Shown in pieces: positions 3,380-47,328 of a stretch of 64,000 nt of DNA. The notes under the pieces were generated by a model. The model had not been told where the DNA came from. It worked only from the letters and a program-made list of their open reading frames with translations, and did no database searches. The position numbers were made by a program, and so were the translations under genes. Each line of letters starts with the position of its first letter. Position 1 is the first letter of the stretch. Source of the DNA: Patescibacteria group bacterium (GTDB lineage Bacteria > Patescibacteriota > Patescibacteriia > UBA10025 > JAHIVO01); contig JBAZWB010000002.1 in NCBI GenBank assembly GCA_041660605.1, positions 66,216 to 130,215 on the forward strand, read 5' to 3'.

Positions 3380-4294
3380 CTATGAGCTAAACTTAAACCT
3401 AATAAATAAATCCGCGAAATATTTAAAATTATTCGCTATCTGTTCAACCGCCTGTTCGCGGGTAATCTTCTCTGATTTGAAATCCACCAGTGCCTGCCAA
3501 AAAACCGTCCTGCCGACCGCAAAACCGATGACCCCGTCCACCCTGGCGCCGGTCTCAATCCATTTTTCTACCAGCTCGCGGGTCTCGCCGCGTCCCAACA
3601 CGATCATGCAGACCTGCCCGCGCCGCCCCTTGCGCATCTGCTTGATGACGTCCTGGTAATTTTCCATTTCCTGAAATCCCTCAATTTTCCAGACATCCGG
3701 ATCCACTCCGCCTTTTTGCAATTCTTTGACCATTTTTATTGCCAGGTCCGGACGCATTTCCAGATTGTACCGGCGATGGTCGGCCTGCACTTTGTTCAGC
3801 TGGTCCACAGTCGGAGGCACCAGAACTTCTAGCATGAATTTATAACCGTGAGTGCGGCAATAATCGCTTAACTTTGCTAATCGCTGGCGCTGTCGTTCGT
3901 TTAATTCCTCATCTCCGCCGGGATTGTAGCGTAGTAAAGCTTTGGCAAACTGCGGCCGGTATTTATCCAGGTGTTCGCCGAATTGGTGGTTAAATTCAAA
4001 ATCAAATTCAGCCTGCCCGCTTTTTTCCGTGCACATGCAGACAATAAAACCAGCCTGTCTGGCTTGGCGCAAAATCAAATCACCGCACTGCTCGTCCACC
4101 AGTATGGCCGCGGATTCTTTCGGCACCCCGCGGCTGACGGCCAGAGCAAAACCTTCGTAGATTATCTGCTTGTATTCCGCCAGCTTGGCCACGCGTTCAA
4201 TGGTAAACAAATCCTCCCAGCCGAACATCTTTTCAGCAAAGCTTTGGCGGTGGTCAAATGGCAATATGTATAATGGTTTGTTATATCCGAGCAT
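3380..4294 (-). CDS. Aldolase-like TIM-barrel protein (DUF2090 / 5-keto-2-deoxy-phosphogluconate aldolase-like), putative
   Basis: 304 aa; N-terminal LYILPFDHRQSF resembles the DUF2090/IolC-C-terminal-type aldolase family; family call from memory only. Confidence 0.4.
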   Translation of the reverse strand: MLGYNKPLYILPFDHRQSFAEKMFGWEDLFTIERVAKLAEYKQIIYEGFALAVSRGVPKESAAILVDEQCGDLILRQARQAGFIVCMCTEKSGQAEFDFEFNHQFGEHLDKYRPQFAKALLRYNPGGDEELNERQRQRLAKLSDYCRTHGYKFMLEVLVPPTVDQLNKVQADHRRYNLEMRPDLAIKMVKELQKGGVDPDVWKIEGFQEMENYQDVIKQMRKGRRGQVCMIVLGRGETRELVEKWIETGARVDGVIGFAVGRTVFWQALVDFKSEKITREQAVEQIANNFKYFADLFIRFKFSS

Positions 4295-4367
4295 TTTTTA
4301 TGGATTAACTTGTGTGTTTATTATAGATTAAGAGGAGATATTTTCATAATTTAATATTATAATTGCC

Positions 4368-6078: not shown

Positions 6079-6104
6079 TATTATTTAAGTCAAAAATAAA
6101 AATT

Positions 6105-6167
6105 CTCGGCAAAGCTTTGGCGGTGGTCAAATGGCAGAATGTATAATGGCTTGTTATATCCGAGCAT
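6105..6167 (-). pseudogene. Duplicated 5' fragment (first 21 codons) of the aldolase-like gene at 3380..4294
   Basis: Translates MLGYNKPLYILPFDHRQSFAE then diverges to a stop; about 94% identical to 4231..4294; all 4 differences are synonymous. Confidence 0.6.
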
Positions 6168-6234
6168 TTTTATATTTAGTACTTACGCTGGTTATTATAT
6201 CAGATTTAAATATTTAACTATGCCTACAATTTGA

Positions 6235-10552: not shown

Positions 10553-10996
10553 TTATTTCTCCGCGCGTTTAATCATATTAACTCTCCGGTGGTGCCTGGC
10601 TGAGGCGCTGAATTTGGTTTTTAACCAAACGGCCACCATTTTTTTTGCTTCAGCCAAAGATATGTAATCGGCACCCAGGCATAACACATTGGCATCATCA
10701 TCAACCCGGGACATCTTGGCCGAGCGCAGGTTAAACGCCTGGCAAGCCCTGATGCCCTTAACTTTATTGGCCGCGATGCACCCGCCGGCGCCGGAGCGGC
10801 AAATAAAAATGCCGCGGCCATCGCGTGTCTGGGCCACCTGCCGTGCCATTTTAAAGGCGAAAACGGGATAATCGTCCTGCGGATCTACTGCTGTATTGCC
10901 TACGTCTGCCAGACTGTATTTATTCTTAATTAAAAATTTCTTCAGCTCCTCCTTGTATTTATATCCGCCGTGATCTGCTCCTAAGAATATTTTCAT
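10553..10996 (-). CDS. rpiB: Ribose-5-phosphate isomerase B (RpiB/LacAB family)
   Basis: 147 aa; MKIFLGADHGGY...ICRSGAGGCIAANK. Confidence 0.9.
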   Translation of the reverse strand: MKIFLGADHGGYKYKEELKKFLIKNKYSLADVGNTAVDPQDDYPVFAFKMARQVAQTRDGRGIFICRSGAGGCIAANKVKGIRACQAFNLRSAKMSRVDDDANVLCLGADYISLAEAKKMVAVWLKTKFSASARHHRRVNMIKRAEK

Positions 10997-11151
10997 AAAT
11001 TAAGCGCTTTACCACACCATTATAGCATATTTTGGGCAGGATTAAAGTGCCGCCACTCTACTGTCATTGTAATTGACTTTTTTTAATAACGGAATTAAGC
11101 TGGAACTGACTAAATAAAAAATACAAACTACCGCAAGAAAGTAGGCGAATC

Positions 11152-11640
11152 ATGAGAGCTTGTTTAATGGCATTTGTTTCGACTGTATTGCTTCTAGCTT
11201 CTGCTGGCTATCCTAATGACAGTACTAATACGCTGGCCAAGCAGGACACCTCAATTAACCTGGGGCAGGTGGTTGCGCCGGCTCAAACACCTGTTGTTGA
11301 AGATTCCACGCTGATTGCCACTCGCCGGCTACTGGCTCAAGGTGGCGGATATCTGGATCTTTTCGGCAAAGTCATGGAGGATGAAAAAGGCGGAGCCGAG
11401 TTTGGCGGGAGTTACCGCCTAATATCAAAACGAATGCGCGAATTGGCGAAAACGCTGGGCATGCCGCAGGATGAATTCATTGAATACGTGCGTCGCGGAA
11501 TAACAGAAGCCATGAATGACATTAATTCGCATGACGTCCAACTAGTCACGCGCAAGCTATCGCAATACGAGGATGCCGGCATAAACATTCTCGTACGACA
11601 TTCAATTGTGCGCAGTGATTCCGCAAAAACCGTACATTAG
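11152..11640 (+). CDS. Hypothetical secreted protein (signal peptide); the only plus-strand gene in the window
   Basis: 162 aa; hydrophobic N-terminus MAFVSTVLLLASAG; followed by a terminator. Confidence 0.5.
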   Translation: MRACLMAFVSTVLLLASAGYPNDSTNTLAKQDTSINLGQVVAPAQTPVVEDSTLIATRRLLAQGGGYLDLFGKVMEDEKGGAEFGGSYRLISKRMRELAKTLGMPQDEFIEYVRRGITEAMNDINSHDVQLVTRKLSQYEDAGINILVRHSIVRSDSAKTVH

Positions 11641-11665
11641 CTACCATTTTAGAGGTTACTCCACA

Positions 11666-11696
11666 CCCCGCCTGCAACAGCAGACGGGGTTTTTTA
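11666..11696 (+). terminator. Rho-independent terminator (CCCCG...CGGGG stem + T7)
   Basis: ccccgcctgcaacagcagacggggttttttat directly after the 11152..11640 stop. Confidence 0.6.
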
Positions 11697-11808
11697 TGGA
11701 TTGGAGCGCACCCAGTCTTCGACCCTGTCTTCGATCCCGATAGTCCTCAGACCGAGGGGAGGCTCAGACCCGAAGGGGGACTAATTACTAGTGGCTAACA
11801 ACTAACCA

Positions 11809-12363
11809 CTAAACTTCATACTCCCACCACGGCTGCCAGACGAATTCCTCATTGACGCACTGCTCCAGCGTACGGCGGGCGGTCAGGACGTCCAGGGCAT
11901 AATAGGTGGCGCGGTGGTCAACGATTAAAATAATTTTGTCCGGGTATTTATCTTTTATTTCCAATAAAAAACCCTGCACCCGCTCTACTGCCTGCTCATA
12001 GCTTTCGCCATTGGGAAACGGCTCTTTTATTTTTTTCGGTTTAAGGGCATAAACTTCCTTGGTGGTATGGCCGTTTAAATCCCCGTAGCTGATCTCCCGC
12101 AAGCGCCGGTCATAAATGACCGGAATTTTTTCGCCAAAAGCGATGGCTACCGTATCTTTCGCCCGTTGCAAATCCGAGGTAAAAATCAGATCAATTTTAA
12201 TATTTTTAAACCTCTCTCCCATTTCCGCTGACTGCTTTCTGCCCAATTCCGAAAGCTCCCCGGGATTTTGGCCGGTAGCCAGCCCTCTGGCATTATCGGT
12301 GGTTTCTGAATGCGTGGCGAAATATATTTTCATAAAAAAATTGTTATGCACCGCCACTCCCAC
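11809..12363 (-). CDS. Histidine phosphatase family protein (phosphoglycerate-mutase-like)
   Basis: 184 aa; N-terminal catalytic-His context MKIYFATHSETTDN, PGM-like fold pattern. Confidence 0.75.
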   Translation of the reverse strand: MGVAVHNNFFMKIYFATHSETTDNARGLATGQNPGELSELGRKQSAEMGERFKNIKIDLIFTSDLQRAKDTVAIAFGEKIPVIYDRRLREISYGDLNGHTTKEVYALKPKKIKEPFPNGESYEQAVERVQGFLLEIKDKYPDKIILIVDHRATYYALDVLTARRTLEQCVNEEFVWQPWWEYEV

Positions 12364-12483
12364 CCTGTCATTCTGAGGAGTCCCGCCGCAGGCGGGCGAC
12401 GTGAGAATCTCCTGGGTTCAGGCACCGCGGGGATTGTCACGTCATTCGCTTCGCTCATTCCTCACAATGACAGTAGAGTGGCG
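12351..12483. repeat. ~130-bp element with ~25-bp terminal inverted repeats (CGCCACTC..CTGTCATT); a solo copy of its terminus lies at 11051..11070
   Basis: 12351 ccgccactcccaccctgtcattctgagga ... tcctcacaatgacagtagagtggcg 12483; 11051 cgccactctactgtcattgt is the exact reverse complement of 12464..12483. Confidence 0.45.
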
Positions 12484-12484
12484 A

Positions 12485-13192
12485 TTACTTTTTCAAATAC
12501 CCCAGCCTTTTACTCTCCGGAAACCTCTCAATCGCGTACCTCAGCATAGTCCGCGGCATTGCTTTATAATGCCGTTGCAAAAACTTTTCTTCAGCCGCTT
12601 GGTCGCGCTTGCCCATCTCCCGGAGCATCCAACCCACTGCCTTGTGGATCAAATCGTGCTGGTCATTTAATAATATTTCAGCTATTGCTAATGCATCTTT
12701 AAAATTTTTATTCCTGAGAAAAGTAAAAGTGGCCAGCATAGCCACCCGCCTTTCCCACAAACTCGTTGACCGCGCCAGCTTATATAAAATTCCCCTGGGC
12801 TTGTCCAGTAAATATGTGCCAACGATATTTGGCGCGGACAAATCCACCAAATCCCAATTATTGATAAAGGCGGTATTCTTTAAATAAATATTAAAAATAG
12901 AACGGCGCTTTGCTTCGTCGGCTTTATTAAACTGGTCAACTAAAATCAGTAAAACCACCAAACGGTGTTCGTGGATTTTGCTTCTTAACAAAGATTCTGC
13001 GTCTTTTAAAGGCAAATCTTGGTACTTCTTAACTACCTGCCTTTGTACCGGCACTTTGATGCCCAGAAAAATATCTCCCTCGCCGTAATCTCCTTTGCCG
13101 GTTTTGAAAAAGCGCGACAGGTTTTTAGCCTGCTGAGGATTGGCGAGTTTTTTTAATTCGGCTATAACTTCAGCGAGATTACTCATAATCAA
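12485..13192 (-). CDS. DNA alkylation repair enzyme (AlkD-like HEAT-repeat glycosylase family)
   Basis: 235 aa; helical repeats, WMLRE motif characteristic of the DNA_alkylation family. Confidence 0.7.
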   Translation of the reverse strand: MIMSNLAEVIAELKKLANPQQAKNLSRFFKTGKGDYGEGDIFLGIKVPVQRQVVKKYQDLPLKDAESLLRSKIHEHRLVVLLILVDQFNKADEAKRRSIFNIYLKNTAFINNWDLVDLSAPNIVGTYLLDKPRGILYKLARSTSLWERRVAMLATFTFLRNKNFKDALAIAEILLNDQHDLIHKAVGWMLREMGKRDQAAEEKFLQRHYKAMPRTMLRYAIERFPESKRLGYLKK

Positions 13193-17504: not shown

Positions 17505-17762
17505 ACAGAGCGAGGAGGAATGGTTGCCCATGGGCAACCGCGTTGTACTGTTTGAGCGAACGCAGCGAAGTCTCGCCGCAGGCGGACGAAGCGAGGAGCG
17601 AGTTTACAACGCGGAATGACAACGAGCCTGTTTATGCCTGCCCCGTACCTGGAGCGAAGCGAAATGGTGCGGGGTTAATTTCTTTGTACCGGCGCAGCTC
17701 TTTTGCTTCTTTGGCGCCTGCCCCGCTGGATAGCGGGGTTTGCACAGAAAAGAAGAAATAAA
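17505..17762 (+). ncRNA. Structured intergenic repeat element, copy 1 (candidate ncRNA; strand uncertain)
   Basis: About 95-nt core identical (3 substitutions) to 24805..25005; closed by a perfect 10-bp stem CCGCGTTGTA/TACAACGCGG; 5' GAGGAGGAATG plus hairpin; 3' hairpin carrying a nested insertion. Confidence 0.4.
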
Positions 17763-20285: not shown

Positions 20286-20475
20286 AGCTATTTGCCATTA
20301 ATGGCCAATAATTGTAGAAAAGAATTTAAGGGGGAGTTTTTAAACTCCAACTTCCTAGCTTAGGTCGGGGTGCCGGGACCCCGCACCACTGCTGGGTACG
20401 GGGCAAGCTTGTCACCCTTCGGGTGATCCCCCAAAGGGGGAAACTTGCGATCTCAAGCATATTTTTTCCGAAAAT

Positions 20476-20515
20476 CGGGGTACTGGGACTCGAACCCAGG
20501 GTCTTCCCGCAACAG
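20476..20515 (-). pseudogene. tRNA 3'-half fragment (T-arm CTGGG-TTCGAGT-CCCAG + acceptor TACCCCG-A) followed by a T-run
   Basis: Reverse complement reads CCACTGTTGCGGGAAGACCCTGGGTTCGAGTCCCAGTACCCCGATTTT; same acceptor 3' strand as the adjacent tRNA-Pro. Confidence 0.5.
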
Positions 20516-20592
20516 TGGTCGGGGTAGTGGGACTTGAACCCACGGCCTCATGCACCCCATGCATGCGCGCTAGCCAACTGCGCCATACCCCG
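20516..20592 (-). tRNA. tRNA-Pro (anticodon GGG) with encoded CCA
   Basis: Manual fold: acceptor CGGGGTA/TACCCCG, D-arm GCGC-AGTTGGCTA-GCGC, anticodon arm CATGC-ATGGGGT-GCATG, T-arm GTGGG-TTCAAGT-CCCAC, discriminator A, CCA. Confidence 0.8.
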
Positions 20593-20689
20593 ACCACTGT
20601 TGCGGGACGCGCTACGCCTCAGCCAAAGGCTGATCCCCGCCCACCTGCTATCGCAGATAGCGGGCGCGGCGCCTATGGTGGAAACTTCG

Positions 20690-20945
20690 CTATACCCCGT
20701 TTTTTGGAAAAAACATGCGCGATAGTTTACCCCGTATCCCGAGTGAAACGAGTGGTACGGGGCCAACGGAGTTTACCCCGCCGTATGGCGGGGCCATACC
20801 CCGACCTGAGCTATGAAAAATCTTGCACCTTTACCCCGCATCATCTGACCCTGAGCGGAGTCGAAGGAGAAGAATGGTGCGGGGCCATGCATGCTCGTTA
20901 GTTTACCCCGACCTAAGTTATGAAAAACCTTACACTTTTGGCCCA
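20690..20945. repeat. Tandem direct repeats (~120-bp period) each carrying copies of the tRNA acceptor/5'-flank (TACCCCGACC) and a 35-nt unit CCCCGACCTRAGYTATGAAAAAYCTTGCAC
   Basis: taccccg occurs at least 6 times; gccataccccgacc at 20582 is duplicated near 20775; 35-nt unit at about 20786 and 20905. Confidence 0.5.
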
Positions 20946-21061
20946 GTTATTTTTTCGGTACCTACGGCGTTTCTATTATTTAATGATGCTTTTTTAAAAT
21001 TATTTACCTAAATCGCCAAACTGAATAACAATTATAGCGTAAAATATTGTATTTGTAAAAT

Positions 21062-21090
21062 AAAAATCCCGACATGGAGCCGGGATTTTT
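21062..21090 (-). terminator. Bidirectional rho-independent terminator hairpin (A-run / stem / T-run)
   Basis: aaaaatcccgacatggagccgggattttt just downstream of the 21129 stop. Confidence 0.5.
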
Positions 21091-21128
21091 GGGCAAAACA
21101 AGGTGACGTTACAGGCTCAGCTGTCTGC

Positions 21129-21326
21129 CTAATCAGTAGTTTCGACCGGATCGCGAACAATCGTTCTGCGAAAACCACAGGGATTACTGACAGTACAAAC
21201 AAGCTCCTCGCCGTTTCCCGCCATCGCGTCATGCGTTGGACGGATTATCAATGTGCCGCGCCCACATGTGCAGCCCTTACCTTCGTTAGACAAAGCCTCG
21301 CTTCTGATGATCTCCTGTGCTGGCAT
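21129..21326 (-). CDS. Small Cys-containing protein, hypothetical
   Basis: 65 aa; strong SD (AGAGGAGG) 6 nt upstream of ATG; GKGCTCGRG...CTVSNPCGF; second gene of a two-gene operon. Confidence 0.45.
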   Translation of the reverse strand: MPAQEIIRSEALSNEGKGCTCGRGTLIIRPTHDAMAGNGEELVCTVSNPCGFRRTIVRDPVETTD

Positions 21327-21348
21327 TGCTACCTCCTCTTGAGTAAAT

Positions 21349-21558
21349 CTAAGGTACTATCTTTCTTTTTTCTACTTTTAACGAATATTTGCGGGATCCC
21401 GGTACCCGTTTCAGGAGATAGGCGTCCCCGCATTGCTGACACATGACGCCAATCTCCGTTTCTGTGTCAATTATCTTACGTGCTGCTCCGTGGCAGGTTG
21501 ATGGCTGCTGGAGCATGTGTGCAATCATCTCCCGATAACACTCTGGGTGCTTGCCCAT
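21349..21558 (-). CDS. Small zinc-ribbon-like protein (C/H x4), hypothetical
   Basis: 69 aa; SD GAGGAGG 5 nt before ATG; C7, C22-H23, C39-x2-C42; basic C-terminus. Confidence 0.5.
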   Translation of the reverse strand: MGKHPECYREMIAHMLQQPSTCHGAARKIIDTETEIGVMCQQCGDAYLLKRVPGSRKYSLKVEKRKIVP

Positions 21559-21825
21559 TAATCCTCCTCAAAAGAAATTTGGTTCTTCCCTCATAATAAA
21601 AAAATTAGCCACCTGATGGCTAATCTGTAAGTCCTTTATTTTATTAGAAAACTACAGACTAACCATCAAGCCGCTAATTATAATAATAATTGCAATAACA
21701 ATACCCGCACCTATCAGGGTGAAATTCTCGTTATATATTTTGGCACTGTTTAATTGCATATTTTTTTCCACAATTTGGCTGAAATCAGTATAGCAAATCC
21801 CGCAAAACTGTCAAAATTACATTTT

Positions 21826-24387: not shown

Positions 24388-24424
24388 TTATACTAGTTAC
24401 TAAAAACTAGTGGCTAATTACAAC

Positions 24425-24804: not shown

Positions 24805-25005
24805 AGGAGTGAGGAGGAATGATCCCGCCGATAGGCGGGACCGCGTTGTACTGTGTAAGCGAACGCAGCGAAGTCTCGCCGCAGGCGGACGAAGCGAGGA
24901 GCGAGTTTACAACGCGGAATGACGACGAGCCCTTTTTCGATAATTTTTTATACAGGCGGCAACTCTTTTGCTTCTTTTCTGTTTGCACAGAAAAGAAGAA
25001 ATAAA
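24805..25005 (+). ncRNA. Structured intergenic repeat element, copy 2 (candidate ncRNA; strand uncertain)
   Basis: Same ~95-nt core as 17505..17762; the 5' hairpin has different sequence but conserved hairpin structure (tcccgcc-gata-ggcggga vs ggttgccc-atgggcaacc); perfect 11-bp 3' hairpin cttcttttctg/cagaaaagaag. Confidence 0.4.
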
Positions 25006-25032: not shown

Positions 25033-27066
<2,034 letters not shown>

Positions 27067-27117
27067 TTATAATTCTTAATGTATATTTTATTAATTATTC
27101 ATTATACATTATTAATT

Positions 27118-28455
27118 TTACCGACAATCCTCAAAAATCTTATAACTGCTGATCTGATACCAGTCAATTTTAACCGGATTAATAGTCTTATTTTCAAATC
27201 TGATGGTCCGGCCGGGCTGGGCGCTCAGGCTGAACGGTTCGGAAATAGTGCAGGTCTGGAAAGTGGCGCTGGCGGGTAAGGTAATTACCAACCCGGTTTC
27301 GCCAGTTTCCGGGTCATTTATCAGCGTTTCCAATGATGAACCCGCCGCAGAACTGACGCGTAAACTGACGTAGTACTCTGAACCAGCCAGTATCGTATCG
27401 GCCAATGGCATGGTAAAGGAGGCGCCGTTATTATTTCCCATTGAGCAATAAGTCGGCGGGGTGGCATCTGTACAGGAAACAGTATCCACGCAGCTCAGCC
27501 AGCTCGCTCCGCCAGTAGTACAGCTATCGCAATCTATACACTGGTCAGTCAGCCCGCTCTCAACCTGGACTGTGCCTGAACTGTAAATCGGCTGGCCTAA
27601 AATTATTGTTTTATAGATTTCCCCTTCGCTGAATAGCACGTAATCATACAGCCCGAACAGCGGAACTTTCCAGGGCACCTGGGCGGTCAGAGACTGCTTG
27701 AAGTTCCCCCGCGTACCCACAGATTTTATCAAAATCTGCGAAGGAAGATCATCAGCAGACAATGGATCAACGCCATTGGGCTGTTTAAATGGCGTTACTG
27801 TCAAATCCGACAAATCACCGGACATGGCCTTTATTCTTAGCCTATAGCCAGTTGGCGTAATGTCAGTAAAAACATTCAAATTAATAGGATACCCATTAAC
27901 CATCTTTAAATCTGTCGGACCGATAATTCTTCTCGCCCGGTCAGAATAACCCAATAGGCCATTTTCATTCCAGGCAGTCCAGGAAACATCCGCCCAGGAA
28001 CCGAGATTATCACCTTCATTGATAATTCTTATTGATTCTACGGTGAATAACGGGTTTAGGGAATTATCAATATCATAATAATCCGCTTGAACGTATTTAT
28101 TCTCCAGAATATTTTCATTCTCTATTTGTGTTGATTTTTTACTTGTGCCCGCATTAGAATAAGAGGCGTTATTGCTCTGAACACTGCTGAAATTATCGGC
28201 TTGGGCCAGTATCGCTGTCACAGTTTGGGTTAGATTATTGCTGTTATCAGCACGCATTATTTTTACGGTAAAAAGTCCCCGTTCAATCCCCGATTCGGCT
28301 GCGTAATAGGCCATGGTAGAGTTGGAGGCGGTGCTGGTCAGCGCCAATTCATTGACTACAATTATAGAAACTGTCAGGGCGATGGCGGTAATCAGCGACA
28401 TTATTAAAAGCGCATATAGCAGAACCGCGCCTTGATTGTCATTCTTTAAGCTCAT
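27118..28455 (-). CDS. PilX-N-domain-like pilus-associated protein (large minor-pilin-like, Cys-rich C-terminus)
   Basis: 445 aa; N-terminal TM then AAESGIERGL motif resembling PilX_N; C-terminal CIDCDSCTTGG...C cluster. Confidence 0.5.
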   Translation of the reverse strand: MSLKNDNQGAVLLYALLIMSLITAIALTVSIIVVNELALTSTASNSTMAYYAAESGIERGLFTVKIMRADNSNNLTQTVTAILAQADNFSSVQSNNASYSNAGTSKKSTQIENENILENKYVQADYYDIDNSLNPLFTVESIRIINEGDNLGSWADVSWTAWNENGLLGYSDRARRIIGPTDLKMVNGYPINLNVFTDITPTGYRLRIKAMSGDLSDLTVTPFKQPNGVDPLSADDLPSQILIKSVGTRGNFKQSLTAQVPWKVPLFGLYDYVLFSEGEIYKTIILGQPIYSSGTVQVESGLTDQCIDCDSCTTGGASWLSCVDTVSCTDATPPTYCSMGNNNGASFTMPLADTILAGSEYYVSLRVSSAAGSSLETLINDPETGETGLVITLPASATFQTCTISEPFSLSAQPGRTIRFENKTINPVKIDWYQISSYKIFEDCR

Positions 28456-28457: not shown

Positions 28458-29192
28458 CTAATCATAATTTAAATTCAAAACCTGGCCGGAGGCTCGCCGC
28501 AGAGAAATAGTGGTCTGCATGGAAACCGTCCGCGATTTTTCTGGCAGGGGAATTTCCGTGGCCATGGCCGTCATGGAGATCCGGACTTTTGGCTGAAAAT
28601 TACCTCCATCGGAATAATACTGGCAAAAGCACGGATCAACGGTGCAGCTGCAGCTGTAGCCATAAATGTTCAGACATTCCAGTGTTTTGGCGCTTCCGGC
28701 CGTACACGCTACAGCTGTGCTGGGTGTGAAGGGATTAGCACTGGGAGTAATAATGAACTGTAGCTGGCTGATAGAAACGCCGACTGGGGTAATGTCAAAC
28801 CAGCCAGTGCCGGTAGCCAGATCGCAATCACCGGCGATCTCCACTTTGCAATACTGCACACCGTCTCCTTCCTGACGGAAATAGATTTCCTCTCCCGACT
28901 GATTGAAAATGGCCAATATTTTATTCGTCACGCCGGCTTGGGGGTACAGTTCAATGCCGTTATCAGCATAAAAAGAATAATTTATACTGCCCAAGCGCAC
29001 CTGCTGAGCCAAAGTCTCGAATACATAGCGCAGATCGTCCTGCACGCGCTGCATGGCCACCACTTTGCGCTGAGAATTATTGATAATCAGATAGACGTTG
29101 ATCGCCGCCAAAATTGTCATCACAAAAATCGACAGAGAAATAATCATTTCTATGAGGGTAAAGCCGTTTTGATTTTTTGACAGATGGTTCAT
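28458..29192 (-). CDS. Type IV minor pilin / pseudopilin (prepilin-type N-terminal cleavage/methylation domain)
   Basis: 244 aa; NGFTLIEMIISLSIF class III signal sequence. Confidence 0.65.
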   Translation of the reverse strand: MNHLSKNQNGFTLIEMIISLSIFVMTILAAINVYLIINNSQRKVVAMQRVQDDLRYVFETLAQQVRLGSINYSFYADNGIELYPQAGVTNKILAIFNQSGEEIYFRQEGDGVQYCKVEIAGDCDLATGTGWFDITPVGVSISQLQFIITPSANPFTPSTAVACTAGSAKTLECLNIYGYSCSCTVDPCFCQYYSDGGNFQPKVRISMTAMATEIPLPEKSRTVSMQTTISLRRASGQVLNLNYD

Positions 29193-29352
29193 TGTTTCTT
29201 TCTAATTTAATCCAATATTCCTTTCAAGCTTTAACTCCATTGGATTTGACGCACTCTATGACAGGTACGCTCGGAGCTAAAATTATTCCCGCCCGCCTGA
29301 CTTCGTCAGGCGAAGTCGGGCGCGGCATTATAAATTTTAAATTATTAATTAA

Positions 29353-29961
29353 CTACAACGCCAGCCAATTATACAATCTATCCTCAATGATAATTTTCTT
29401 ACTGGAACTGGCATCCGGCCAATGCACTTCGGAAATTATTCGTACACCGACTTTTGCATAGCCGAGACCGAAAGCAGTGCAGTCATCAGTTGAGGTTTTG
29501 ACGGGTATTTTTTCATCGCCATCCGTGTCCAGTCGGCAGATGGGATTCAAATACAAAATTCTGAAAAATTCCGTCCGGCTGCCGCTAGCTGAACTGCCCT
29601 GCAAAAATTGGTCCAAAGCATCGCTGTATTTAAGATTTGTCGGTGCCGTAATGCTAAAATCTAATGTGATATTCGATGTCCCGTCGATTACCGGCTGCGC
29701 CATGTTGTCATTTCCAGAAACCAATCCGCTGTCCCAAGCTGGATGGCTGGGGTCCGACCAATTGCTATCGCGGATATTGCGCACTATTTCTATGCCCTCG
29801 CGCGCCAGGCTCGAGCCGATCAGTTTATTCCTGCTATCCCGGCCGGCGTTAATACTGGTAACAACCAAAACGATCGTCGCTGTCAGTGAAATCAATAAAA
29901 CTGAGACGGCGATTATTACTTCTAGCAAGCTTTGGCCTTTTTTGTTAAAAATAATTTTCAT
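29353..29961 (-). CDS. Type IV minor pilin (PilV-like)
   Basis: 202 aa; KGQSLLEVIIAVSVL prepilin N-terminus. Confidence 0.6.
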   Translation of the reverse strand: MKIIFNKKGQSLLEVIIAVSVLLISLTATIVLVVTSINAGRDSRNKLIGSSLAREGIEIVRNIRDSNWSDPSHPAWDSGLVSGNDNMAQPVIDGTSNITLDFSITAPTNLKYSDALDQFLQGSSASGSRTEFFRILYLNPICRLDTDGDEKIPVKTSTDDCTAFGLGYAKVGVRIISEVHWPDASSSKKIIIEDRLYNWLAL

Positions 29962-29966
29962 ATTTT

Positions 29967-30656
29967 TTATAAACTGCAGGGATTCTGGACCTCGCTTATC
30001 TGGCCGGAGATGCGGTTAATGGATATTTTCCGGCAATTTTCGGTGACAAAATTGCTTTGGACCAGTAAATCGAGGGTATTTATCAAGTCACCGTCCCCGT
30101 CCACTGCAGGCACCTGATGCAGATAAAAATGAATATCGCCATTAGGCGGCTCAAAAGTAATGTCCAGGGGATTTATAGGGCTTGGTGCCAGCGCCACCCC
30201 ATTCCCCAATTTAAACTGCAAAATATAAAGCCCCTTAATGGAAATATCTTTCAGTAAAATTGCGGCATCTACATTCGAATCATCATAGAATTGATTTTTT
30301 GTCGTATCGCCAAATAGTAAATAAGATCCGGTTGACTCCAGATGAATCCCATAGCCTCCCAAAGGCACGGAAGTTATGCAGCTATTTGGCGCGCAATAAG
30401 TGTCATCAGCGCAGGGTTTGAATGCATTGGGTTGGGGTATAGAGCCTCCCTCGCAGTATTTAATGCTGTTGCCTCCGGTAGTGTACCCCTGGGCCAGACG
30501 AAGATTTTGTAGCAGCTCAGTGCCGGCTCGCCGGAGCTCATTAGCCCGCCGGCCGTATTGGAAATTTGCCATTACCAGCACTGACATAATGCCAATAATA
30601 CTGATGGTAATCAGCAACTCTAGCAATGTAAATCCCCGGCTGTCGCGATTTTTCAT
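29967..30656 (-). CDS. Type IV minor pilin / GspH-FimT-like pseudopilin
   Basis: 229 aa; RGFTLLELLITISIIGIM prepilin N-terminus. Confidence 0.65.
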   Translation of the reverse strand: MKNRDSRGFTLLELLITISIIGIMSVLVMANFQYGRRANELRRAGTELLQNLRLAQGYTTGGNSIKYCEGGSIPQPNAFKPCADDTYCAPNSCITSVPLGGYGIHLESTGSYLLFGDTTKNQFYDDSNVDAAILLKDISIKGLYILQFKLGNGVALAPSPINPLDITFEPPNGDIHFYLHQVPAVDGDGDLINTLDLLVQSNFVTENCRKISINRISGQISEVQNPCSL

Positions 30657-31435
30657 AAGATAAGCAGATTCTTATAAAACAAAATTACCGCTGAACCAAT
30701 TAAAAAAGCTGCAAAGGTGGCCAGGCTCAGGAAGGTTCCAAAAGGTACCTGGCTTTTCCATTTTTTTCTGCCTGAAAAGATCAGCCCCAGCCCGCCTAAG
30801 GAGCCAGTAAAATAAGCAATGAATAAAGCTACCAGCAAAGCCTGATAGCCCAGCATTGCCCCCATCATCAAGCCCAGCCGGATATCGCCTCCGCCGATCC
30901 ATTTACCGCGCGAGACCAGATACTGCAGCAGAAAAAAACCTCCGCCGATCAGCAGGCCTAATAGCAGGCTAAGCAATGAAATTTTCAAAACGAAAAAAGA
31001 CAATAGGAAAGCGATAACAACCGCCGGAATCGATACCTTGTCCAAAACCAGATAATACCGCCAGTCAAAGACAAATATTATTATTAAAAATACTGTATAA
31101 ATCAGATAAACCGCGAAAGTCGCGGATAAACCGAATTTGAAATAAAGCAGTAAAAAAGCCATCGCCGTGGCCAACTCCACCAGTGGATACTGCCAGGAAA
31201 TTTTTTTCCGGCAGTAACGGCATTTGCCTTTTAGAAAAATAAAGCTAAAAACGGGAAATAAATCGCGAAAATCCAAATTGTGCTTGCAAAAAGGACAATA
31301 CGAATGCCCCTTCATAAAACTTACCCCAACATGCAGACGGTAAATGACCGCGTTTAGAAAACTGCCGATAACCAAACCTAAAATTATTACGAAAAATTCA
31401 ATCATACCAGTGTATATTATAACAGAAAAAGGCAA
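30653..31435 (-). CDS. pilD: Prepilin peptidase (A24 family)
   Basis: 260 aa; N-terminal CPFC...CRYC zinc motif, multi-TM, GGGDIRLGLMMG catalytic Asp region. Confidence 0.85.
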   Translation of the reverse strand: MPFSVIIYTGMIEFFVIILGLVIGSFLNAVIYRLHVGVSFMKGHSYCPFCKHNLDFRDLFPVFSFIFLKGKCRYCRKKISWQYPLVELATAMAFLLLYFKFGLSATFAVYLIYTVFLIIIFVFDWRYYLVLDKVSIPAVVIAFLLSFFVLKISLLSLLLGLLIGGGFFLLQYLVSRGKWIGGGDIRLGLMMGAMLGYQALLVALFIAYFTGSLGGLGLIFSGRKKWKSQVPFGTFLSLATFAAFLIGSAVILFYKNLLIL

Positions 31436-31484
31436 ATAAAAACAGATATGATTTTTTCATACCTGCTCTATTATTTAAATAGTT

Positions 31485-31898
31485 TTAGTTAATACCTTCG
31501 GGTGAAAGAGTGTGTTTGCCGGATTTCAAGCTGCCGTAATTCTTCTCCAGATTAAAGGTAATTTCATAGCCATCTTCCGCCGGTACCTTGGTTACCAGAT
31601 AGCTGGACTGACCTGGATCCGTAAATTGGCTTACGTTATTGACGTAATTCTTCAGATTGCACTGGCTGGCCAGCATATTCAGCTGATCACAGCCCCCTTC
31701 GGCTGCCCCGGCGTAACTGGCCGTATCTTTATACAGAAATTCAAAAGCTGCCTGCAGTCTGGCTATATCCGACAGCCGGCGGGCATCCCTGGTTTTGGCT
31801 TTTTCCTGGTTCAATAATACGAAGCCGCCGCCGATGAGCACGCCGAAAACTATGATTAAGACCAATATTTGAATCAGTGAGACTCCCTTTTTATTCAT
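31485..31898 (-). CDS. Pilin-like protein with non-canonical N-terminus (Gln instead of Glu at +5)
   Basis: 137 aa; KKGVSLIQILVLIIVFGVLIGG then RRLSDIARLQAAFEFY pilin-like alpha1 motif. Confidence 0.45.
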   Translation of the reverse strand: MNKKGVSLIQILVLIIVFGVLIGGGFVLLNQEKAKTRDARRLSDIARLQAAFEFLYKDTASYAGAAEGGCDQLNMLASQCNLKNYVNNVSQFTDPGQSSYLVTKVPAEDGYEITFNLEKNYGSLKSGKHTLSPEGIN

Positions 31899-31916
31899 AT
31901 CATTTAGTAATATTTA

Positions 31917-32414
31917 TTAAGTCGCTGGCAGGGTTGGGCAATGATCGCCCTCGCCGTAGATGCCGGTTGAATAAAAATAGAACCACATTTTCGTATCCGC
32001 TTCCTTATGAAAACAGATAACATAGTTCCGATGATTCACCGCGCTGTTCTCATTAGTATCATAGAAATAATAATAGTTGCTGTTGTTAATCGGATCTTTA
32101 AACGGCGCACTGATATATCCCGGATACAAAGGATTATTATGATTATTATCTGAAAAAATGGAGTTATCAATGGCCAAATCGCTGTCATCCGGGCCAGCGC
32201 CTCCGTTCGTAGCCGGTACAGGATACTGTTCGTGATCCGCGTAATAAAGGGCTAGTCCTGAACGCAACTCTGCTAAATCTGCCATACGGTGGGCATCGCG
32301 GGCCGAAGCGCGCGCGCCGTCCAGGGTCGCCAGGCCGATAACCGCCAAAATGCCTATAATCGCGATCACTACCAGCAGCTCAATTAAAGTAAAAGCTTTG
32401 TTATTTACTCCCAT
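31917..32414 (-). CDS. Type IV pilin (candidate major pilin)
   Basis: 165 aa; [19 protein letters not shown]; RDAHRMADLAELRSGLALYY motif. Confidence 0.8.
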   Translation of the reverse strand: MGVNNKAFTLIELLVVIAIIGILAVIGLATLDGARASARDAHRMADLAELRSGLALYYADHEQYPVPATNGGAGPDDSDLAIDNSIFSDNNHNNPLYPGYISAPFKDPINNSNYYYFYDTNENSAVNHRNYVICFHKEADTKMWFYFYSTGIYGEGDHCPTLPAT

Positions 32415-43882: not shown

Positions 43883-44082
43883 GAATATCCGTCCACTTTT
43901 AATTAACTATCTCTTGATCTTTAAAAAATATTTAGCCTAATAGCTAACGACTAATTACTAGTGACTAATCTTCCAAATTATACCATTTATAAAGGCTTAT
44001 ATTCAACCTTGCCTCGAGCGAAGCCCCCGCGTGGGGGGCGGAGTCGAGAGGACCCGATAATCCACCACCTTGCTTGCCCTAG

Positions 44083-44235
44083 CCGAGACTTCTCCATTCC
44101 TCTTCGGCTACGCTCAGAGTCAGTCGAAGTGACAAGCGTTTGTTCAGGTAAAACCCTTATGATAGGCACCAGCGCTTGTCATGTCGACCATAGGCCCTGA
44201 GCTTGCCGAAGGGCCGAAGTGGAGACATCTCAGTC
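44083..44235. repeat. Palindrome-bearing intergenic repeat, copy A
   Basis: GTCGAAGTGACAAGCG (44123) and CGCTTGTCATGTCGAC (44173) form a 16-bp inverted repeat; leader GAGACTTCTCCATTCCTCTTCGGCTACGCTCAGAGTCAGTCGAAGTGACA is repeated at 44805. Confidence 0.55.
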
Positions 44236-44244
44236 AACTGCACC

Positions 44245-44538
44245 TTACCCATACCACCCCTCACTCAAATCATTCCAGCAGGGATTCATGCTATTAATCA
44301 ACCATTCTTTTTTCTCCCGGCGCCACCGTTTTATCTGTTTCTCCCTTTGTATTGCCACAAAAATATCGTCGTGCACTTCGTAATACACTAGCTTGTTAAC
44401 ATTATACTTACTTGTAAAACCCGGATATACTTTATTCTTATGCTGCCAAACACGACTTTCAAGATTTGAAGTAACCCCGACATATAAAACACTCTTCATT
44501 TTATTAGTCAGTATATAAACATAATATTGCCAGGCCAT
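44245..44538 (-). CDS. GIY-YIG nuclease superfamily protein (YhbQ/UPF0213-like small stand-alone form)
   Basis: About 97 aa from internal Met (MAWQYYVYILTN...SVLYVGVTSNLESRVWQHK...KLVYYE...REKQIKRWRREKK); the longer ORF extends to 44604. Confidence 0.8.
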   Translation of the reverse strand: MAWQYYVYILTNKMKSVLYVGVTSNLESRVWQHKNKVYPGFTSKYNVNKLVYYEVHDDIFVAIQREKQIKRWRREKKEWLINSMNPCWNDLSEGWYG

Positions 44539-44620
44539 AATAAAAATTCCTTCCGTTTGAGGAAGGCTATGGTCTAATAGTAGTATATTAATTAACTTTG
44601 TCAATCATACTAGCGTTTTT

Positions 44621-44775
44621 AACTCCAAGTCGAGATTTCTCCATTCGTCCTCGTTCCACTCGGGCTCAGTCGAAATGACATGCGTTTTTTGACGACAAAC
44701 AACACCTGATAAAACCACCCAAGTCTGTCATATCGACCCCCTCGACTACGCTCGGGGCAGGCTTCGCGGAGACAT
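44621..44775. repeat. Palindrome-bearing intergenic repeat, copy B (diverged)
   Basis: gtcgaaatgaca ... tgtcatatcgac; shares the GAGACATCTCRG tail with copy A. Confidence 0.5.
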
Positions 44776-44804
44776 CTCGGCTAAGCCCCACCCACGTTGT
44801 TTAT

Positions 44805-44862
44805 TCCAAAAACGAGACTTCTCCATTCCTCTTCGGCTACGCTCAGAGTCAGTCGAAGTGAC
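44805..44862. repeat. Partial copy C of the same repeat (left arm only, 50/50 identical to the copy A leader)
   Basis: cgagacttctccattcctcttcggctacgctcagagtcagtcgaagtgaca. Confidence 0.5.
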
Positions 44863-44883
44863 AGGGCGTATACCCCCAACACA

Positions 44884-44937: not shown

Positions 44938-45459
44938 TTATCCCTCACATTCTAAATCAGCAGCTAAATCGCCACAAACTGGCGCAGTAGTAGATACCCA
45001 GTTTGAACAGGAAGTACCATCCCCTTTCAGCCAATACCAGTGCGAAGTGCTAGTACTTGGTGATTCCATTAATGCATAGACTATGTAATATGGTTCGAGT
45101 TCTCCTGGGGTTGCGCCACAGGCAACATATTCATAGTTATATAGATTTGAATCCGCTCCCGCAGATCCTGCTTTTGGATCATCCGGTACTACTGAAATAT
45201 AATCCGTTGCCAATAGCGTGCCTAAAACGGATTTAGCATTATCTAATGCCGCAATCGAAGTAACATTTGGATAAGTACTGGAATTATCGTCTGAATACAG
45301 CACTAACCCGGTCCTAATCTGACCGAGGTCTGATTTTCTAGACGCGTCGCGGGCTTTTTCTCTAGCACCGTTCAGGGCCACCAAACCGATGGTAGCCAAA
45401 ATACCGATGATGGCGATAACCACCAATAACTCAATGAGTGTAAAACCTTTCTTTTTCAT
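44938..45459 (-). CDS. Type IV pilin (candidate major pilin)
   Basis: About 173 aa from [22 protein letters not shown]; [19 protein letters not shown]; C-terminal Cys pair. Confidence 0.8.
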
Positions 45460-45689
45460 GAATTCACCCCCTTTCATATGTTGAGAACGGTGAATCTTTT
45501 AATTGACTTATAACGATTCACAGATCACGGATCCGAGCTGACCCGTGATAATTATGAGCCAAAAAAGTATTACCGGTCTGCTGTTAATTTTTATTATTGA
45601 CCAAAGAACTATTGATAATATTGAATAAGTGATATATAAATAATATCATATTTTACCGTAATTGTCAAACAATTATCCACTATTTCCCT

Positions 45690-47309: not shown

Positions 47310-47328
47310 ATTTTTATAAAATTTGGAA

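Follow-up and report, generated by a model that had tools for sequence, protein, structure and literature searches.

Ssn-related motifs (SRMs), hairpin repeats paired with small Ssn nucleases (single-domain GIY-YIG proteins, cd10448), were described in 2025, mainly from RefSeq genomes, and in Neisseria the SRM is the element known as NTS or dRS3 (Chenal et al. 2025, PMC11893778). The NTS has the form CGTCATTCCCGCG..GCGGGAATCYRG, and its nuclease SsnA, a single-domain GIY-YIG protein of 94 aa, binds the hairpin as single-stranded DNA only and cuts a few nucleotides upstream of it (PMC11893778). Loop identity is dispensable and the hairpin tolerates extra sequence at the loop position, and in the 3' tail the C that follows the stem is critical for binding; the layout in which two SRMs enclose the nuclease gene (SRM-ssn-SRM) resembles an insertion sequence (PMC11893778). 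The same repeats had earlier been grouped as CGTC-tagged REPs (the tag is often TGTC), a superfamily made up mostly of HH dimers, with the tags outside and spacers of 20-100 bp; it includes dRS3 and the Rickettsia elements RPE-4 and RPE-6, and many of its singletons are what is left of dimers (Di Nocera et al. 2013, PMC3733652).

Results

The inverted repeat and the element at its right-hand end

The stretch of patescibacterial DNA analysed here (the window, 64 kb in its whole length) carries at 11051-11070 a 20-mer, CGCCACTCTACTGTCATTGT, that is the exact reverse complement of 12464-12483 (20/20 positions). The preliminary description of a perfect 20-bp inverted repeat with copies about 1.4 kb apart is thus accurate, the arms being separated by 1393 nt. 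By our own estimate, about 0.002 exact inverted pairs of 20-mers are expected in 64 kb; at up to three mismatches the whole window held no copies beyond these two, and 100 shuffles gave zero matches. The identity of the two arms breaks off exactly at the edge of the 20-mer on both sides: neither local nor global alignment found similarity beyond the 20 nt, and the outer and inner flanks aligned no better than shuffles. The exact 20-mer had 0 matches in the GTDB representative genomes, a set from which the source organism is absent, and an extra 9 kb of the same genome beyond the window held no further copy, which leaves a single dimer and a single solo end of this subtype in ~73 kb of the 960-kb genome. 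Two assemblies, ENA and Logan, span the two arms and match the window exactly, and the NCBI contig, which covers the left arm only, is identical there.

The features of this region are as follows; scores refer to R1, a covariance model that we built from 41 hairpins flanking homologues of the window's GIY-YIG protein (see below) in GTDB genomes of other phyla.

11051-11070, plus strand: solo 20-mer, comprising an 11-nt upstream flank (CGCCACTCTAC), a TGTC tag and the first five stem bases (ATTGT) of an SRM/CGTC-REP unit
11152-11640, plus strand: lone plus-strand gene, an ORFan of 162 aa with a hydrophobic, signal-peptide-like N-terminus
11666-11695, plus strand: terminator-like hairpin with T-run behind the ORFan, common to it and the convergent His_Phos gene (from sequence and fold)
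11809-12333, minus strand: histidine phosphatase gene inside the repeat-bounded segment (Pfam His_Phos_1, E 4e-33)
12351-12483, no strand: imperfect palindrome of 133 bp in which two SRM-like hairpin units form a tags-outward (HH) dimer (from folds, a relaxed module scan and covariance-model matches in both halves)
12357-12411, plus strand: left unit, with flank CUCCCACCC, then TGTCATTCTGAGGAG, a 27-nt insert with its own hairpin, and CGACGTGAGAATCTC (R1 29.5 bits, E 1.9e-6)
12382-12396, no strand: nested GC hairpin CCCGCCGCAGGCGGG (CCCGC-CGCAG-GCGGG) inside the loop of the left unit (from sequence and folds)
12430-12481, minus strand: right unit, read on the minus strand as flank CCACTCTAC and then TGTCATTGTGAGGAATGAGCGAAGCGAATGACGTGACAATCCC (R1 16.1 bits, E 0.017; also in the relaxed scan)
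12464-12483, minus strand: right-hand copy of the 20-mer, i.e., the right unit's flank, tag and first stem bases

The element at 12351-12483 occupies the spacer between the stop codon of the DNA_alkylation gene (12485) and the start codon of the His_Phos gene (12333). It had been described beforehand as compact, with imperfect terminal inverted repeats and an internal GC hairpin, and all of this was borne out. Two hairpin units of the form TGTCATT...AATC[TC]C make up the element, their TGTC tags facing outward; its left end reads CGCCACTC-CCACCC-TGTCATTCTGAGGAG and its right end, as reverse complement, CGCCACTC-TAC-TGTCATTGTGAGGAAT, with the imperfect terminal inverted repeats extending over about 26-29 bp. 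Folded as DNA, the element forms one long imperfect hairpin of -36 kcal/mol (z -5.5), and as RNA it reaches -73 to -74 kcal/mol (z -6 to -6.8). Each unit has a Watson-Crick stem of 5 bp (ATTCT/AGAAT and ATTGT/ACAAT), followed by non-canonical positions that may form G.A pairs; the loops are unusually long (24-27 nt), one of them with its own GC hairpin, and 18 nt separate the two units. The same long-loop insert, 'GAGGAGTCC-hairpin-GGACGACG', is present beside GIY-YIG homologues at loci L061 and L072 and in the metagenome contigs L012, L016 and L018.

On the 3' side of the solo 20-mer there is no hairpin, and R1 had no match there at E<=10. Since the flank, the tag and the first stem bases are present and the hairpin is not, the left 20-mer is, to judge from its sequence, a truncated remnant of a repeat unit. 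A promoter-like sequence, TTGACT-17-TAAGCT, read by eye, begins 4 nt past it.

Rfam reported only a tRNA-Pro in the whole window at gathering thresholds and only noise in 10950-12600 at E<=10. A hammerhead-like reading of CUGAGGAG...CGAAG was dropped because no ribozyme family scored. No translated copies turned up with a peptide probe taken from the open frame that crosses the element, and sequence strings retrieved only primers and plasmid backbones from the literature. A scan of JGI metagenomes with the terminus pattern yielded 16 loci, none from the source organism, which show the wider family.

Assignment to a repeat family

In the 64 kb, R1 ranked the left unit of the element first and the right unit third, the second match and four weaker ones being hairpins around the window's own GIY-YIG gene. 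The upstream consensus of the model, 'uccccaccc', agrees with CUCCCACCC. The SRM head HGTCWY stands directly before the palindrome as TGTCAT at 12366-12371 (plus strand) and 12472-12467 (minus strand), and is also found in the solo 20-mer; the SRM tail RNCYNB follows the palindrome directly (left unit, ...AGAATCTCC; right unit, ...ACAATCCCC). By the standards of CGTC-tagged REPs, the tag, the start of the stem and the 3-bp tail are likewise in place (TGTC-ATT...AAT-CTC and TGTC-ATT...AAT-CCC), and the tags lie at the two outer ends of a single long hairpin, as in HH dimers. The stem of 8-9 bp with a loop of 4-5 nt is missing, as the element has 5 Watson-Crick pairs and 24-27 nt between the stem halves.

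The published search string for SRMs, HGTCWYN(0-2)YYVSBRHN(0-5)WNVSBRGN(0-2)RNCYNB, had 0 matches on either strand of the window, including beside the GIY-YIG gene; the NTS consensus, used as a control, is matched. It misses the element because the stem starts AT-rich and the loops measure 24-27 nt instead of 0-5, and it is insensitive for this clade, since it matched few hairpins near the 79 GIY-YIG homologues described below (5 loci). Our relaxed hairpin detector demanded stem complementarity, which makes the pairing statistics on the resulting alignment (A5) partly circular.

Taken together, we consider it probable (about 0.8) that the element is an HH dimer of CGTC/TGTC-tagged REP (SRM) hairpins, accompanied on the left by a truncated unit, and not a gene-flipping switch.

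A GIY-YIG gene flanked by hairpins

The window encodes a small GIY-YIG protein in the following setting.

44085-44143, minus strand: weaker hairpin unit (R1)
44168-44231, plus strand: SRM-like hairpin, tag outward, directly downstream of the GIY-YIG gene (R1 E 1; also in the relaxed scan)
44245-44604, minus strand: single-domain, Ssn-like GIY-YIG gene (Pfam GIY-YIG, E 5e-17; translation)
44632-44689, minus strand: SRM-like hairpin, tag outward, directly upstream of the gene (R1 17.1 bits, E 0.008; also in the relaxed scan)
44717-44778, plus strand: weaker hairpin unit (R1)
44814-44872, minus strand: weaker hairpin unit (R1)

The probable start is M23 at 44538, which gives a protein of 97 aa; compared with the sequences of solved structures and with NCBIfam, it had no informative match. 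With the two hairpins at its sides, the gene shows the SRM-gene-SRM layout, and we regard it as a candidate protein partner of the hairpin repeats. The flanking hairpins are of the subtype TGTCATnTCGAC...GGAGAnATCTC, whereas the units of the element are of the subtype TGTCATTCTGAGG...GAGAATCTC; the cognate nuclease of the element may therefore be another gene, or there may be none. In the source genome the gene sits at the end of a type IV pilus cluster of the DNA-uptake type.

Hairpins of this kind also flank homologues of the protein with 51-67% identity, which were examined at 79 loci from many phyla. Matches to the relaxed pattern lay within 400 bp of the gene in 159 of 211 cases (raw, overlaps counted), in 13% of the DNA of these loci; at least one unit was found within that distance at 50 of the 79 loci, and units on both sides, mostly with the tag outward, at 30. 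The 7-mer TGTCATT was 13.6-fold enriched within 400 bp of the gene (scrambled 7-mers about 1-fold). Among the 71 dimers in the fetched loci the tags-outward type was the commonest (34), followed by tags-inward (21) and direct (16). The SRM/Ssn pairing appears to hold also in Patescibacteria and in many uncultivated phyla, and long-loop variants of the hairpins go undetected by the published pattern. R1 could be used to annotate SRM repeats and to help remove the spurious small ORFs that they generate in metagenome-assembled genomes.

Enclosed genes and the closest relative

The repeats enclose the plus-strand gene with its terminator and the histidine phosphatase gene, as had been noted before, and the earlier statement that no other plus-strand gene exists in the window is correct if one goes by the genes called on the source contig. 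A mechanically derived plus-strand ORF at 1868-2500 has no Pfam match, and in its region the annotated records have a minus-strand, Ham1-like gene instead. The ORFan has no Pfam match either, and among 5.8 billion proteins its sole match was itself; it shows no homology to its positional counterpart in the closest relative, and no compositional sign of recent acquisition (GC z 1.2, GC3 z 0). A simple terminator scan left the hairpin at 11666-11695 uncalled.

In the closest relative, the flanking genes are 72-75% identical at the protein level and their order is the same (DNA_alkylation - His_Phos - opposite-strand ORF - rpiB), without the repeat pair. The His_Phos gene, with 72% identity to its syntenic orthologue in L019, is by this comparison vertically inherited. 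Between His_Phos and rpiB, two related Patescibacteria have ORFans that are unrelated to each other. The DNA_alkylation/His_Phos spacer of the closest relative contains a single minimal unit, TGTCATTCTGAACTTGTTTCAGAATCTCC, in the same orientation (R1 E 1.2e-5), and the remainder of the spacer is unalignable between the two genomes. A 92-aa gene that seemed inverted in L019 relative to L021 turned out to be merely called differently, owing to a difference in the length of a C-run.

Discussion

Alternative explanations

A perfect 20-bp inverted repeat around complete genes, of which one stands alone on the opposite strand, invites the idea that the two copies are crossover sites of a site-specific invertase and that the 1.4-kb segment with the ORFan and the His_Phos gene flips. 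This had been proposed as one possibility, and the data do not support it. Gene order is unchanged in the closest relative, which also has an opposite-strand ORF in the slot yet lacks the repeat pair; the arrangement is therefore ancestral, and the odd-strand gene predates the repeat. Moreover, whichever way the segment lay, one of its two genes would be on the opposite strand. All three assemblies (ENA, Logan and NCBI, the last of which spans the left arm only) show a single orientation. The search of all ORFs of the window for recombinase or transposase domains was negative, as the preliminary description had stated for recombinases; an invertase could be encoded beyond it, but the right arm is fully accounted for as the end of a standard hairpin-repeat dimer, and we regard inversion as highly improbable. 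That the 20-bp match arose by chance or as an assembly artefact would agree with the mere two copies seen, and can be practically dismissed given the empty shuffles, the expectation of ~0.002 pairs and the agreement of the independent records over the arms.

The remaining two alternatives bear on the element itself. It could be a classical MITE, i.e., a deletion derivative of an IS with a DDE or other transposase, with the left copy as a solo terminal inverted repeat; its small size, intergenic position, terminal repeats of ~26-29 bp and the sharply bounded solo end would all suit such an origin. However, there is no target-site duplication (the element is flanked by ..GCAC| and |ATTA.., the solo end by GTGC|) and no matching transposase in the window, which argues against a classical MITE; what look like terminal repeats are the flank-plus-tag ends of hairpin units, belonging to a family found beside GIY-YIG genes in many phyla, and the exact terminus is missing from the GTDB representative genomes. 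We therefore hold this origin to be very unlikely, although two of the earlier suggestions, REP-like hairpins and a MITE-like element with a solo end, both come near to a TGTC-tagged REP/SRM dimer with a truncated left unit. The element might also act at the RNA level only, as a hairpin that, in the DNA_alkylation-His_Phos transcript, ends transcription or shields the upstream 3' end, with the 20-mer being an unrelated relic or promoter-proximal sequence. The stable fold of the coding strand (-73 kcal/mol, z -6) speaks for this, as does the hairpin unit kept in the spacer of the closest relative though that spacer is otherwise unalignable, and REPs have been reported to be context-dependent 3'UTR regulators. 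Yet ~12 nt separate the stem from the U-run and the terminator scan made no call at the element, and the conserved tag, tail and flank, together with the tight GIY-YIG association regardless of strand, suggest that it is the DNA that is recognised; RNA is no substrate of SsnA (PMC11893778). As a complete explanation the RNA-level reading appears unlikely; it is compatible with the hairpin-repeat dimer as a side effect and not a full rival, and the element would then add a hairpin of about -73 kcal/mol to the DNA_alkylation/His_Phos transcript.

Proposed origin and function

We thus favour the hairpin-repeat dimer. Each unit comprises a C-rich flank of ~10 nt, the TGTC tag, a stem running from ATT to AAT and a C[TC]C tail, and in this model the left copy at 11051 is the 5' piece of another unit, of the right-hand unit's subfamily and in the opposite orientation, that has lost its hairpin or never had one. 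From the characterised family we would expect each unit to fold when the DNA becomes single-stranded, during transformation uptake, replication or repair, and a small GIY-YIG Ssn nuclease, for which the gene at 44245-44604 is the candidate, to bind the folded unit and nick a few nucleotides 5' of the tag. Since both strands of a tags-outward dimer contain a cleavable unit, a single cut would be expected on either of them, and the hairpinless 20-mer is predicted to stay unbound. The geometry of the dimer is that of an SRM-ssn-SRM unit minus the gene, comparable to a REPIN relative to a RAYT, and the dimer therefore probably arose from such units, by non-autonomous copying or by recombination. 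The hairpin sequences, their folds, the family resemblance, the GIY-YIG association and the synteny are direct observations; binding and cleavage by the nuclease, mobility and the origin of the truncated copy are what we deduce from them. The conspicuous 20-bp repeat, as far as its sequence tells, belongs to an ordinary representative of a hairpin-repeat family that is already known (CGTC/TGTC-tagged REPs, or SRMs), so that neither an invertible switch nor a new mobile element needs to be invoked.

The position of the nuclease gene beside type IV pilus genes fits the proposed link of these repeats to the uptake of single-stranded DNA. One may speculate further that SRM hairpins and the nuclease set the end-points of DNA that these ultra-small bacteria exchange by natural transformation, and that the repeat end at 11051 marks the junction of a gene-cassette replacement, since the ORFans in the slot are unrelated and the Ssn-like gene ends the pilus cluster. 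Tags-outward dimers would then serve as strand-independent cut sites and hairpinless fragments would be scars of exchange, a scenario that we deem rather doubtful.

Comparison with known systems

In Neisserial intergenic mosaic elements (NIMEs) and minimal mobile elements, variable genes lie between conserved neighbours, with repeats of the dRS3/NTS type at the borders. The His_Phos-rpiB slot, with its unrelated ORFans in two related species and a repeat fragment at its border, has a similar appearance; it differs in that only one border carries the fragment, and exchange by transformation is hypothetical here. REPINs, or BIMEs, and the RAYT transposases, reportedly the subject of work by Bertels & Rainey in 2011 and Ton-Hoang in 2012, share with our locus the combination of two inverted hairpin repeats and a short spacer into one long hairpin, and a layout that matches a single-copy gene flanked by the same repeats; in both, mobilisation is presumed to be non-autonomous and to proceed via single-stranded DNA. 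They differ in the tag (TGTC here, GTAG there) and in the protein, a GIY-YIG nuclease as opposed to an HUH/Y1 transposase, and transposition of SRMs is only presumed.

With the CGTC-tagged REPs, the element has in common the TGTC tag, A and T at stem positions 1 and 2, the 3-bp tail, the HH dimer folding into one large stem-loop, and a singleton as remnant. Those families have stems of 8-9 bp and loops of 4-5 nt, in contrast to the 5-bp Watson-Crick stem with possible G.A pairs and the long structured loop seen here, and the 18-nt spacer is slightly under their usual 20-100 bp.

The closest counterpart is the SRM/Ssn system. The loops of 24-27 nt with a nested hairpin set the element apart from SRMs, where they measure 0-5 nt; the host is known from a patescibacterial MAG, a group unnamed in the main text of PMC11893778, and the element is of another subtype than the hairpins beside the window's own GIY-YIG gene; its cleavage is a prediction. 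The likeness to the SRM/NTS-dRS3 repeats extends to the (C/T)GTCATT head, the stem from ATT to AAT, the C-Y-N tail and the intergenic location, and the same genome carries a candidate Ssn gene, single-domain GIY-YIG and ~95 aa, with hairpins on both sides, an association reproduced for the 79 homologues.

An inverted repeat with one arm in a palindromic element

The 20-mer CGCCACTCTACTGTCATTGT at 11051-11070 indeed recurs at 12464-12483 as its perfect reverse complement, and 1393 nt separate the two arms. With up to three mismatches tolerated, it has two copies only in the 64-kb window and 0 in 100 dinucleotide-preserving shuffles. Local alignment of the two arm regions returns exactly the 20-mer and nothing more, and aligning the 40-nt stretches on the outer and on the inner side of each arm scores no higher than aligning shuffles. 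Nearly all genes of the window lie on the minus strand, and the local order is as follows.

Features around the inverted repeat
tkt, rpe, rpiB (rpiB 10553-10996), minus strand: first in the local order
11152-11640, plus strand: ORFan, 162 aa
11666-11695: hairpin and T-run after the ORFan
11809-12333, minus strand: His_Phos_1 gene
12351-12483: 133-bp element between the His_Phos_1 and DNA_alkylation genes
Left unit of the element, plus strand: CGCCACTCCCACCC-TGTCATTCTGAGGAG-[TCCCGCCGCAGGCGGGCGAC]-GTGAGAATCTCC
Right unit of the element, minus strand: CGCCACTCTAC-TGTCATTGTGAGGAATGAGCGAAGCGAATGACGTGACAATCCCC
12485-13192, minus strand: DNA_alkylation gene

The compact element that the preliminary description saw ending in the right arm folds into a single long imperfect hairpin (DNA: -36 kcal/mol, z -5.5; RNA: -73 to -74 kcal/mol, z -6 to -6.8), and the GC hairpin CCCGCCGCAGGCGGG noted within it is present at 12382-12396. 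The element is built from two oppositely oriented units whose tags lie at the outer ends. In each unit, a C-rich flank and the TGTC tag precede a stem ATTNN...N'N'AAT, which is followed by the C[TC]C tail. The left 20-mer is identical to the right-hand unit from its flank through the tag to the fifth base of the stem. The inverted repeat would be explained by a probable truncated unit of the right-hand unit's subfamily, reduced to flank, tag and five stem bases and situated 1.4 kb off in opposite orientation. No hairpin follows this left copy; by eye, a promoter-like TTGACT-17-TAAGCT lies downstream of it and upstream of the ORFan, and is not called by a consensus scan. The left copy is probably a truncated unit with nothing functional in its own right.

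Since the units are TGTC-tagged with the tags outside, the element can be read as an HH dimer of the SRM/CGTC-REP family, the TGTC/CGTC-tagged hairpin repeats tied to single-domain GIY-YIG (Ssn) nucleases. We give this membership a probability of about 0.85.

Related hairpins around GIY-YIG genes

Similar hairpins cluster in the window around a small gene (44245-44604) with GIY-YIG as its only domain. Read from an internal ATG, its protein has 97 aa, and the GIY and YIG tyrosines and a conserved glutamate appear in the translation at approximately the positions of SsnA Y6, Y17 and E64. Comparison with solved-structure sequences and NCBIfam gave no informative match. Searching the protein against GTDB representative genomes yielded 79 loci (51-67% identity) from Patescibacteria, Acidobacteriota, Chloroflexota, Bacillota, Proteobacteria, Planctomycetota, Bacteroidota, cyanobacteria and other groups. 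Of the 211 raw matches to the relaxed pattern in these loci (overlaps counted), 159 fall within 400 bp of the gene, a zone that makes up 13% of the DNA; at least one unit lies near the gene in 50/79 loci and units occur on both sides in 30/79, usually tag-outward on each side. Because the relaxed detector demands stem complementarity, enrichment was retested with the bare 7-mer TGTCATT, which is 13.6-fold enriched near the gene (two scrambled 7-mers: 0.9- and 1.2-fold). Gene-free dimers in the fetched loci are most commonly tags-outward (34, versus 21 tags-inward and 16 direct), and units sharing the long insert of the left unit (GAGGAGTCC-hairpin-GGACGACG) flank homologues in a planctomycete (L061) and a member of Terriglobia (L072).

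Beside some GIY-YIG homologues, we observed tandem "stuttered" 5' parts ahead of a full hairpin unit (L027 4797-4867, L029 4948-4994, L060 5534-5602); these copies hold the tag plus half stem only, with a period of ~21-22 nt. Hairpinless heads, as at 11051, therefore recur in the family.

A covariance model (R1) was built on an alignment (A5) of 41 hairpins flanking the homologues, taken from GTDB loci only, and searched against the entire window with filters off. Its first-ranked match is the left unit of the element (12357-12411, 29.5 bits, E 1.9e-6), where CUCCCACCC agrees with the model's upstream consensus uccccaccc. Second comes the hairpin upstream of the GIY-YIG gene (E 0.008) and the right unit of the element third (12430-12481, E 0.017), while four weaker matches are the remaining hairpins around the GIY-YIG gene. 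No match is made at 11051 in this whole-window search, which is what a hairpinless fragment should give. In A5, stem position 18/52 covaries (U-A n=35, C-G n=6, unpaired 0), a result that is partly circular, pairing being one of the selection criteria.

Units of the element's own kind were sought more widely. Scanning JGI metagenomes with GCCACTC-N(2-7)-TGTCATTSTGAGGA retrieved 16 contigs, none from the window's organism; nearly all carry the rest of the unit, which the pattern left unspecified (...CGACGAAGAATCTC), and several have tags-outward pairs. The exact 20-mer has 0 occurrences in GTDB representative genomes, and a peptide probe of the element found no translated copies.

The GIY-YIG gene of the window forms part of an IS-like unit (44085-44872), in which the Ssn-like gene (44245-44538/44604, minus strand) lies amid five TGTC-tagged hairpins; among these, a 51-nt stretch is perfectly repeated in direct orientation (44084-44134 = 44813-44863). 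Directly upstream, within 44938-53949, is a type IV pilus cluster, and a second pilin set with a prepilin peptidase is found at 28458-32414.

Type IV pilus cluster upstream of the Ssn-like gene
44938-45477: pilin
45690-46895: PilC
Between PilC and PilB: response regulator
47329-49080: PilB
50121-50738: PilO-like
52831-53949: PilM

Such a position beside pilus genes would agree with published work linking Ssn to ssDNA uptake.

Inversion and the closest relative

The preliminary description had also offered the 20-mers as sites of DNA inversion around the lone plus-strand gene. The closest relative found (three assemblies, L019-L021; His_Phos 72% and DNA_alkylation 75% identity) has the order Inositol_P - hypothetical - DNA_alkylation - His_Phos - [opposite-strand 172-aa ORF] - rpiB - rpe - tkt. 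Its opposite-strand ORF (L019 8571-9089) is unrelated to the 162-aa ORFan at 11152-11640, and neither protein has a Pfam family. A lone opposite-strand gene is therefore old at this locus and does not reflect a recent flip between the 20-mers, which are not visible in the relative's sequence. The window's DNA lies within the 960-kb contig k141_729649 of a Patescibacteria (CPR) metagenome-assembled genome (ENA ERZ27249449), and identical DNA is found in NCBI GCA_041665905.1 and the Logan assembly of SRR6484324, all in a single orientation. Pfam scans of mechanically selected ORFs of at least 80 aa detected no recombinase or transposase domain in the window. The inversion reading is thus not supported, given the relative's opposite-strand slot and the single orientation of the organism's assemblies. 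The ~73 kb of the 960-kb genome considered here (window plus 9 kb) contain one dimer and one solo end of the element's subtype.

The interval between His_Phos and rpiB is a variable-gene slot with conserved neighbours and an opposite-strand ORF in both species. The sole match of the ORFan among 5.8 billion proteins is itself, and its composition gives no sign of recent transfer. The relative's DNA_alkylation/His_Phos spacer has 65 bp only and carries one minimal unit, TGTCATTCTGAACTTGTTTCAGAATCTCC, in the place and orientation of the element's left unit (R1 E 1.2e-5), the remainder being unalignable. The hairpin site in this spacer has either been retained or been re-seeded repeatedly.

Other repeats in the window

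A palindromic intergenic repeat occurs in two 97-nt copies (17537-17633 and 24840-24936, 95% identical), starting on the minus strand with TGTCATTCCGCGTTGTA... and having a 10-bp stem CCGCGTTGTA/TACAACGCGG. Its inner hairpin GTCTCGCCGCAGGCGGAC is shared with the element's loop. R1 does not detect this repeat, which probably represents a third TGTC-tagged subtype. A 1.5-kb region (20286-21825), for which the ORF list gives short overlapping ORFs only and Rfam tRNA only, includes tRNA-Pro(GGG) (20516-20592, minus strand), whose acceptor stem is prolonged by the perfect 22-bp inverted repeat that encloses the tRNA (20505-20526 / 20586-20607). Visual inspection shows a tRNA-like T-arm/acceptor fragment next to it (~20470-20515), and copies of the 5' end of the tRNA (TACCCCGACC...) lie at 20797-20837 and 20904-20944. 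The 20-nt motif GACTAATTACTAGTGRCTAA, containing ACTAGT, is found three times between genes (11779-11798, 24398-24417, 43949-43968), two of the copies just upstream of minus-strand gene starts, and may be a promoter or operator. AT-rich inverted repeats (~53956-54002 / 54372-54423, region 53955-54423) enclose the gene of a 23S rRNA intervening-sequence protein (PF05635; 54001-54369, GC 32%, z -2.3), and related AT-rich repeats are present at 27057-27118 and 29326-29352, in two further intergenic spacers. Diverged tandem repeats with a period of ~180 nt (153-180 nt) occupy 56683-57757 within a 3167-aa gene (54421-63924) with an fn3 domain match. Finally, a 69-nt direct repeat (4230-4298, 6103-6171; 93% identical) has one copy at the 5' end of a DUF2090 gene and the other upstream of a Fic gene.

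Possible mode of action and relation to known repeats

By analogy with Ssn systems, each unit would fold in single-stranded DNA and be bound by an Ssn nuclease, with a nick expected ~3-4 nt 5' of TGTC, i.e. within the 11-nt flank of the 20-mer. A tags-outward dimer would offer one cleavable unit per strand, and the hairpinless 20-mer should be inert. The geometry of the dimer would be that of SRM-gene-SRM minus the gene, which makes a non-autonomous, REPIN-like origin plausible. A side effect would be a very stable hairpin in the DNA_alkylation-His_Phos transcript; as a terminator, the element lacks a U-run directly after the stem, and the terminator scan makes no call. For a repeat of this family, a partner like the window's GIY-YIG gene is to be expected, and we propose only tentatively, at clearly less than even odds, that the protein encoded at 44245 is the partner of this very element.

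The Neisseria repeat NTS (CGTCATTCCCGCGMAVGCGGGAATCYRG) belongs to dRS3 as a subset. Like related repeats of many bacteria (Ssn-related motifs, SRM), it flanks ssnA, which encodes a 94-aa single-domain GIY-YIG protein (cd10448). SsnA binds the hairpin in single-stranded DNA only, cuts a few nt upstream of it and reduces integration of repeat-bearing transforming DNA; the identity of the SRM loop is non-essential and extensions at its position are tolerated. The authors likened NTS-ssnA-NTS to an insertion sequence and compared it with REP/BIME and RAYT (Chenal et al., 2025; PMC11893778). The same repeats had earlier been classed as CGTC-tagged REPs (Di Nocera et al., 2013; PMC3733652), whose tag is often TGTC, with A-T at the first two stem positions and a tail of 3 bp; the prevailing form is the HH dimer (tags outside), many singletons are remnants of dimers, and no dedicated transposase was known (PMC3733652). 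The degenerate SRM string (Chenal et al., 2025) has 0 matches in the window, although it does match the NTS consensus, used as a control, and it matches hairpins in only 5/79 homologue loci, because of AT-rich stem starts and loops of 24-27 nt, as in the element, in contrast to the 0-5 nt of the published definition. The hairpins by the window's GIY-YIG gene (TGTCATnTCGAC...GGAGAnATCTC) belong to a subtype other than that of the element's units. The element thus adds a little-studied phylum and unusually long loops to a repeat family known since 2013, for which the protein partner was reported in 2025.
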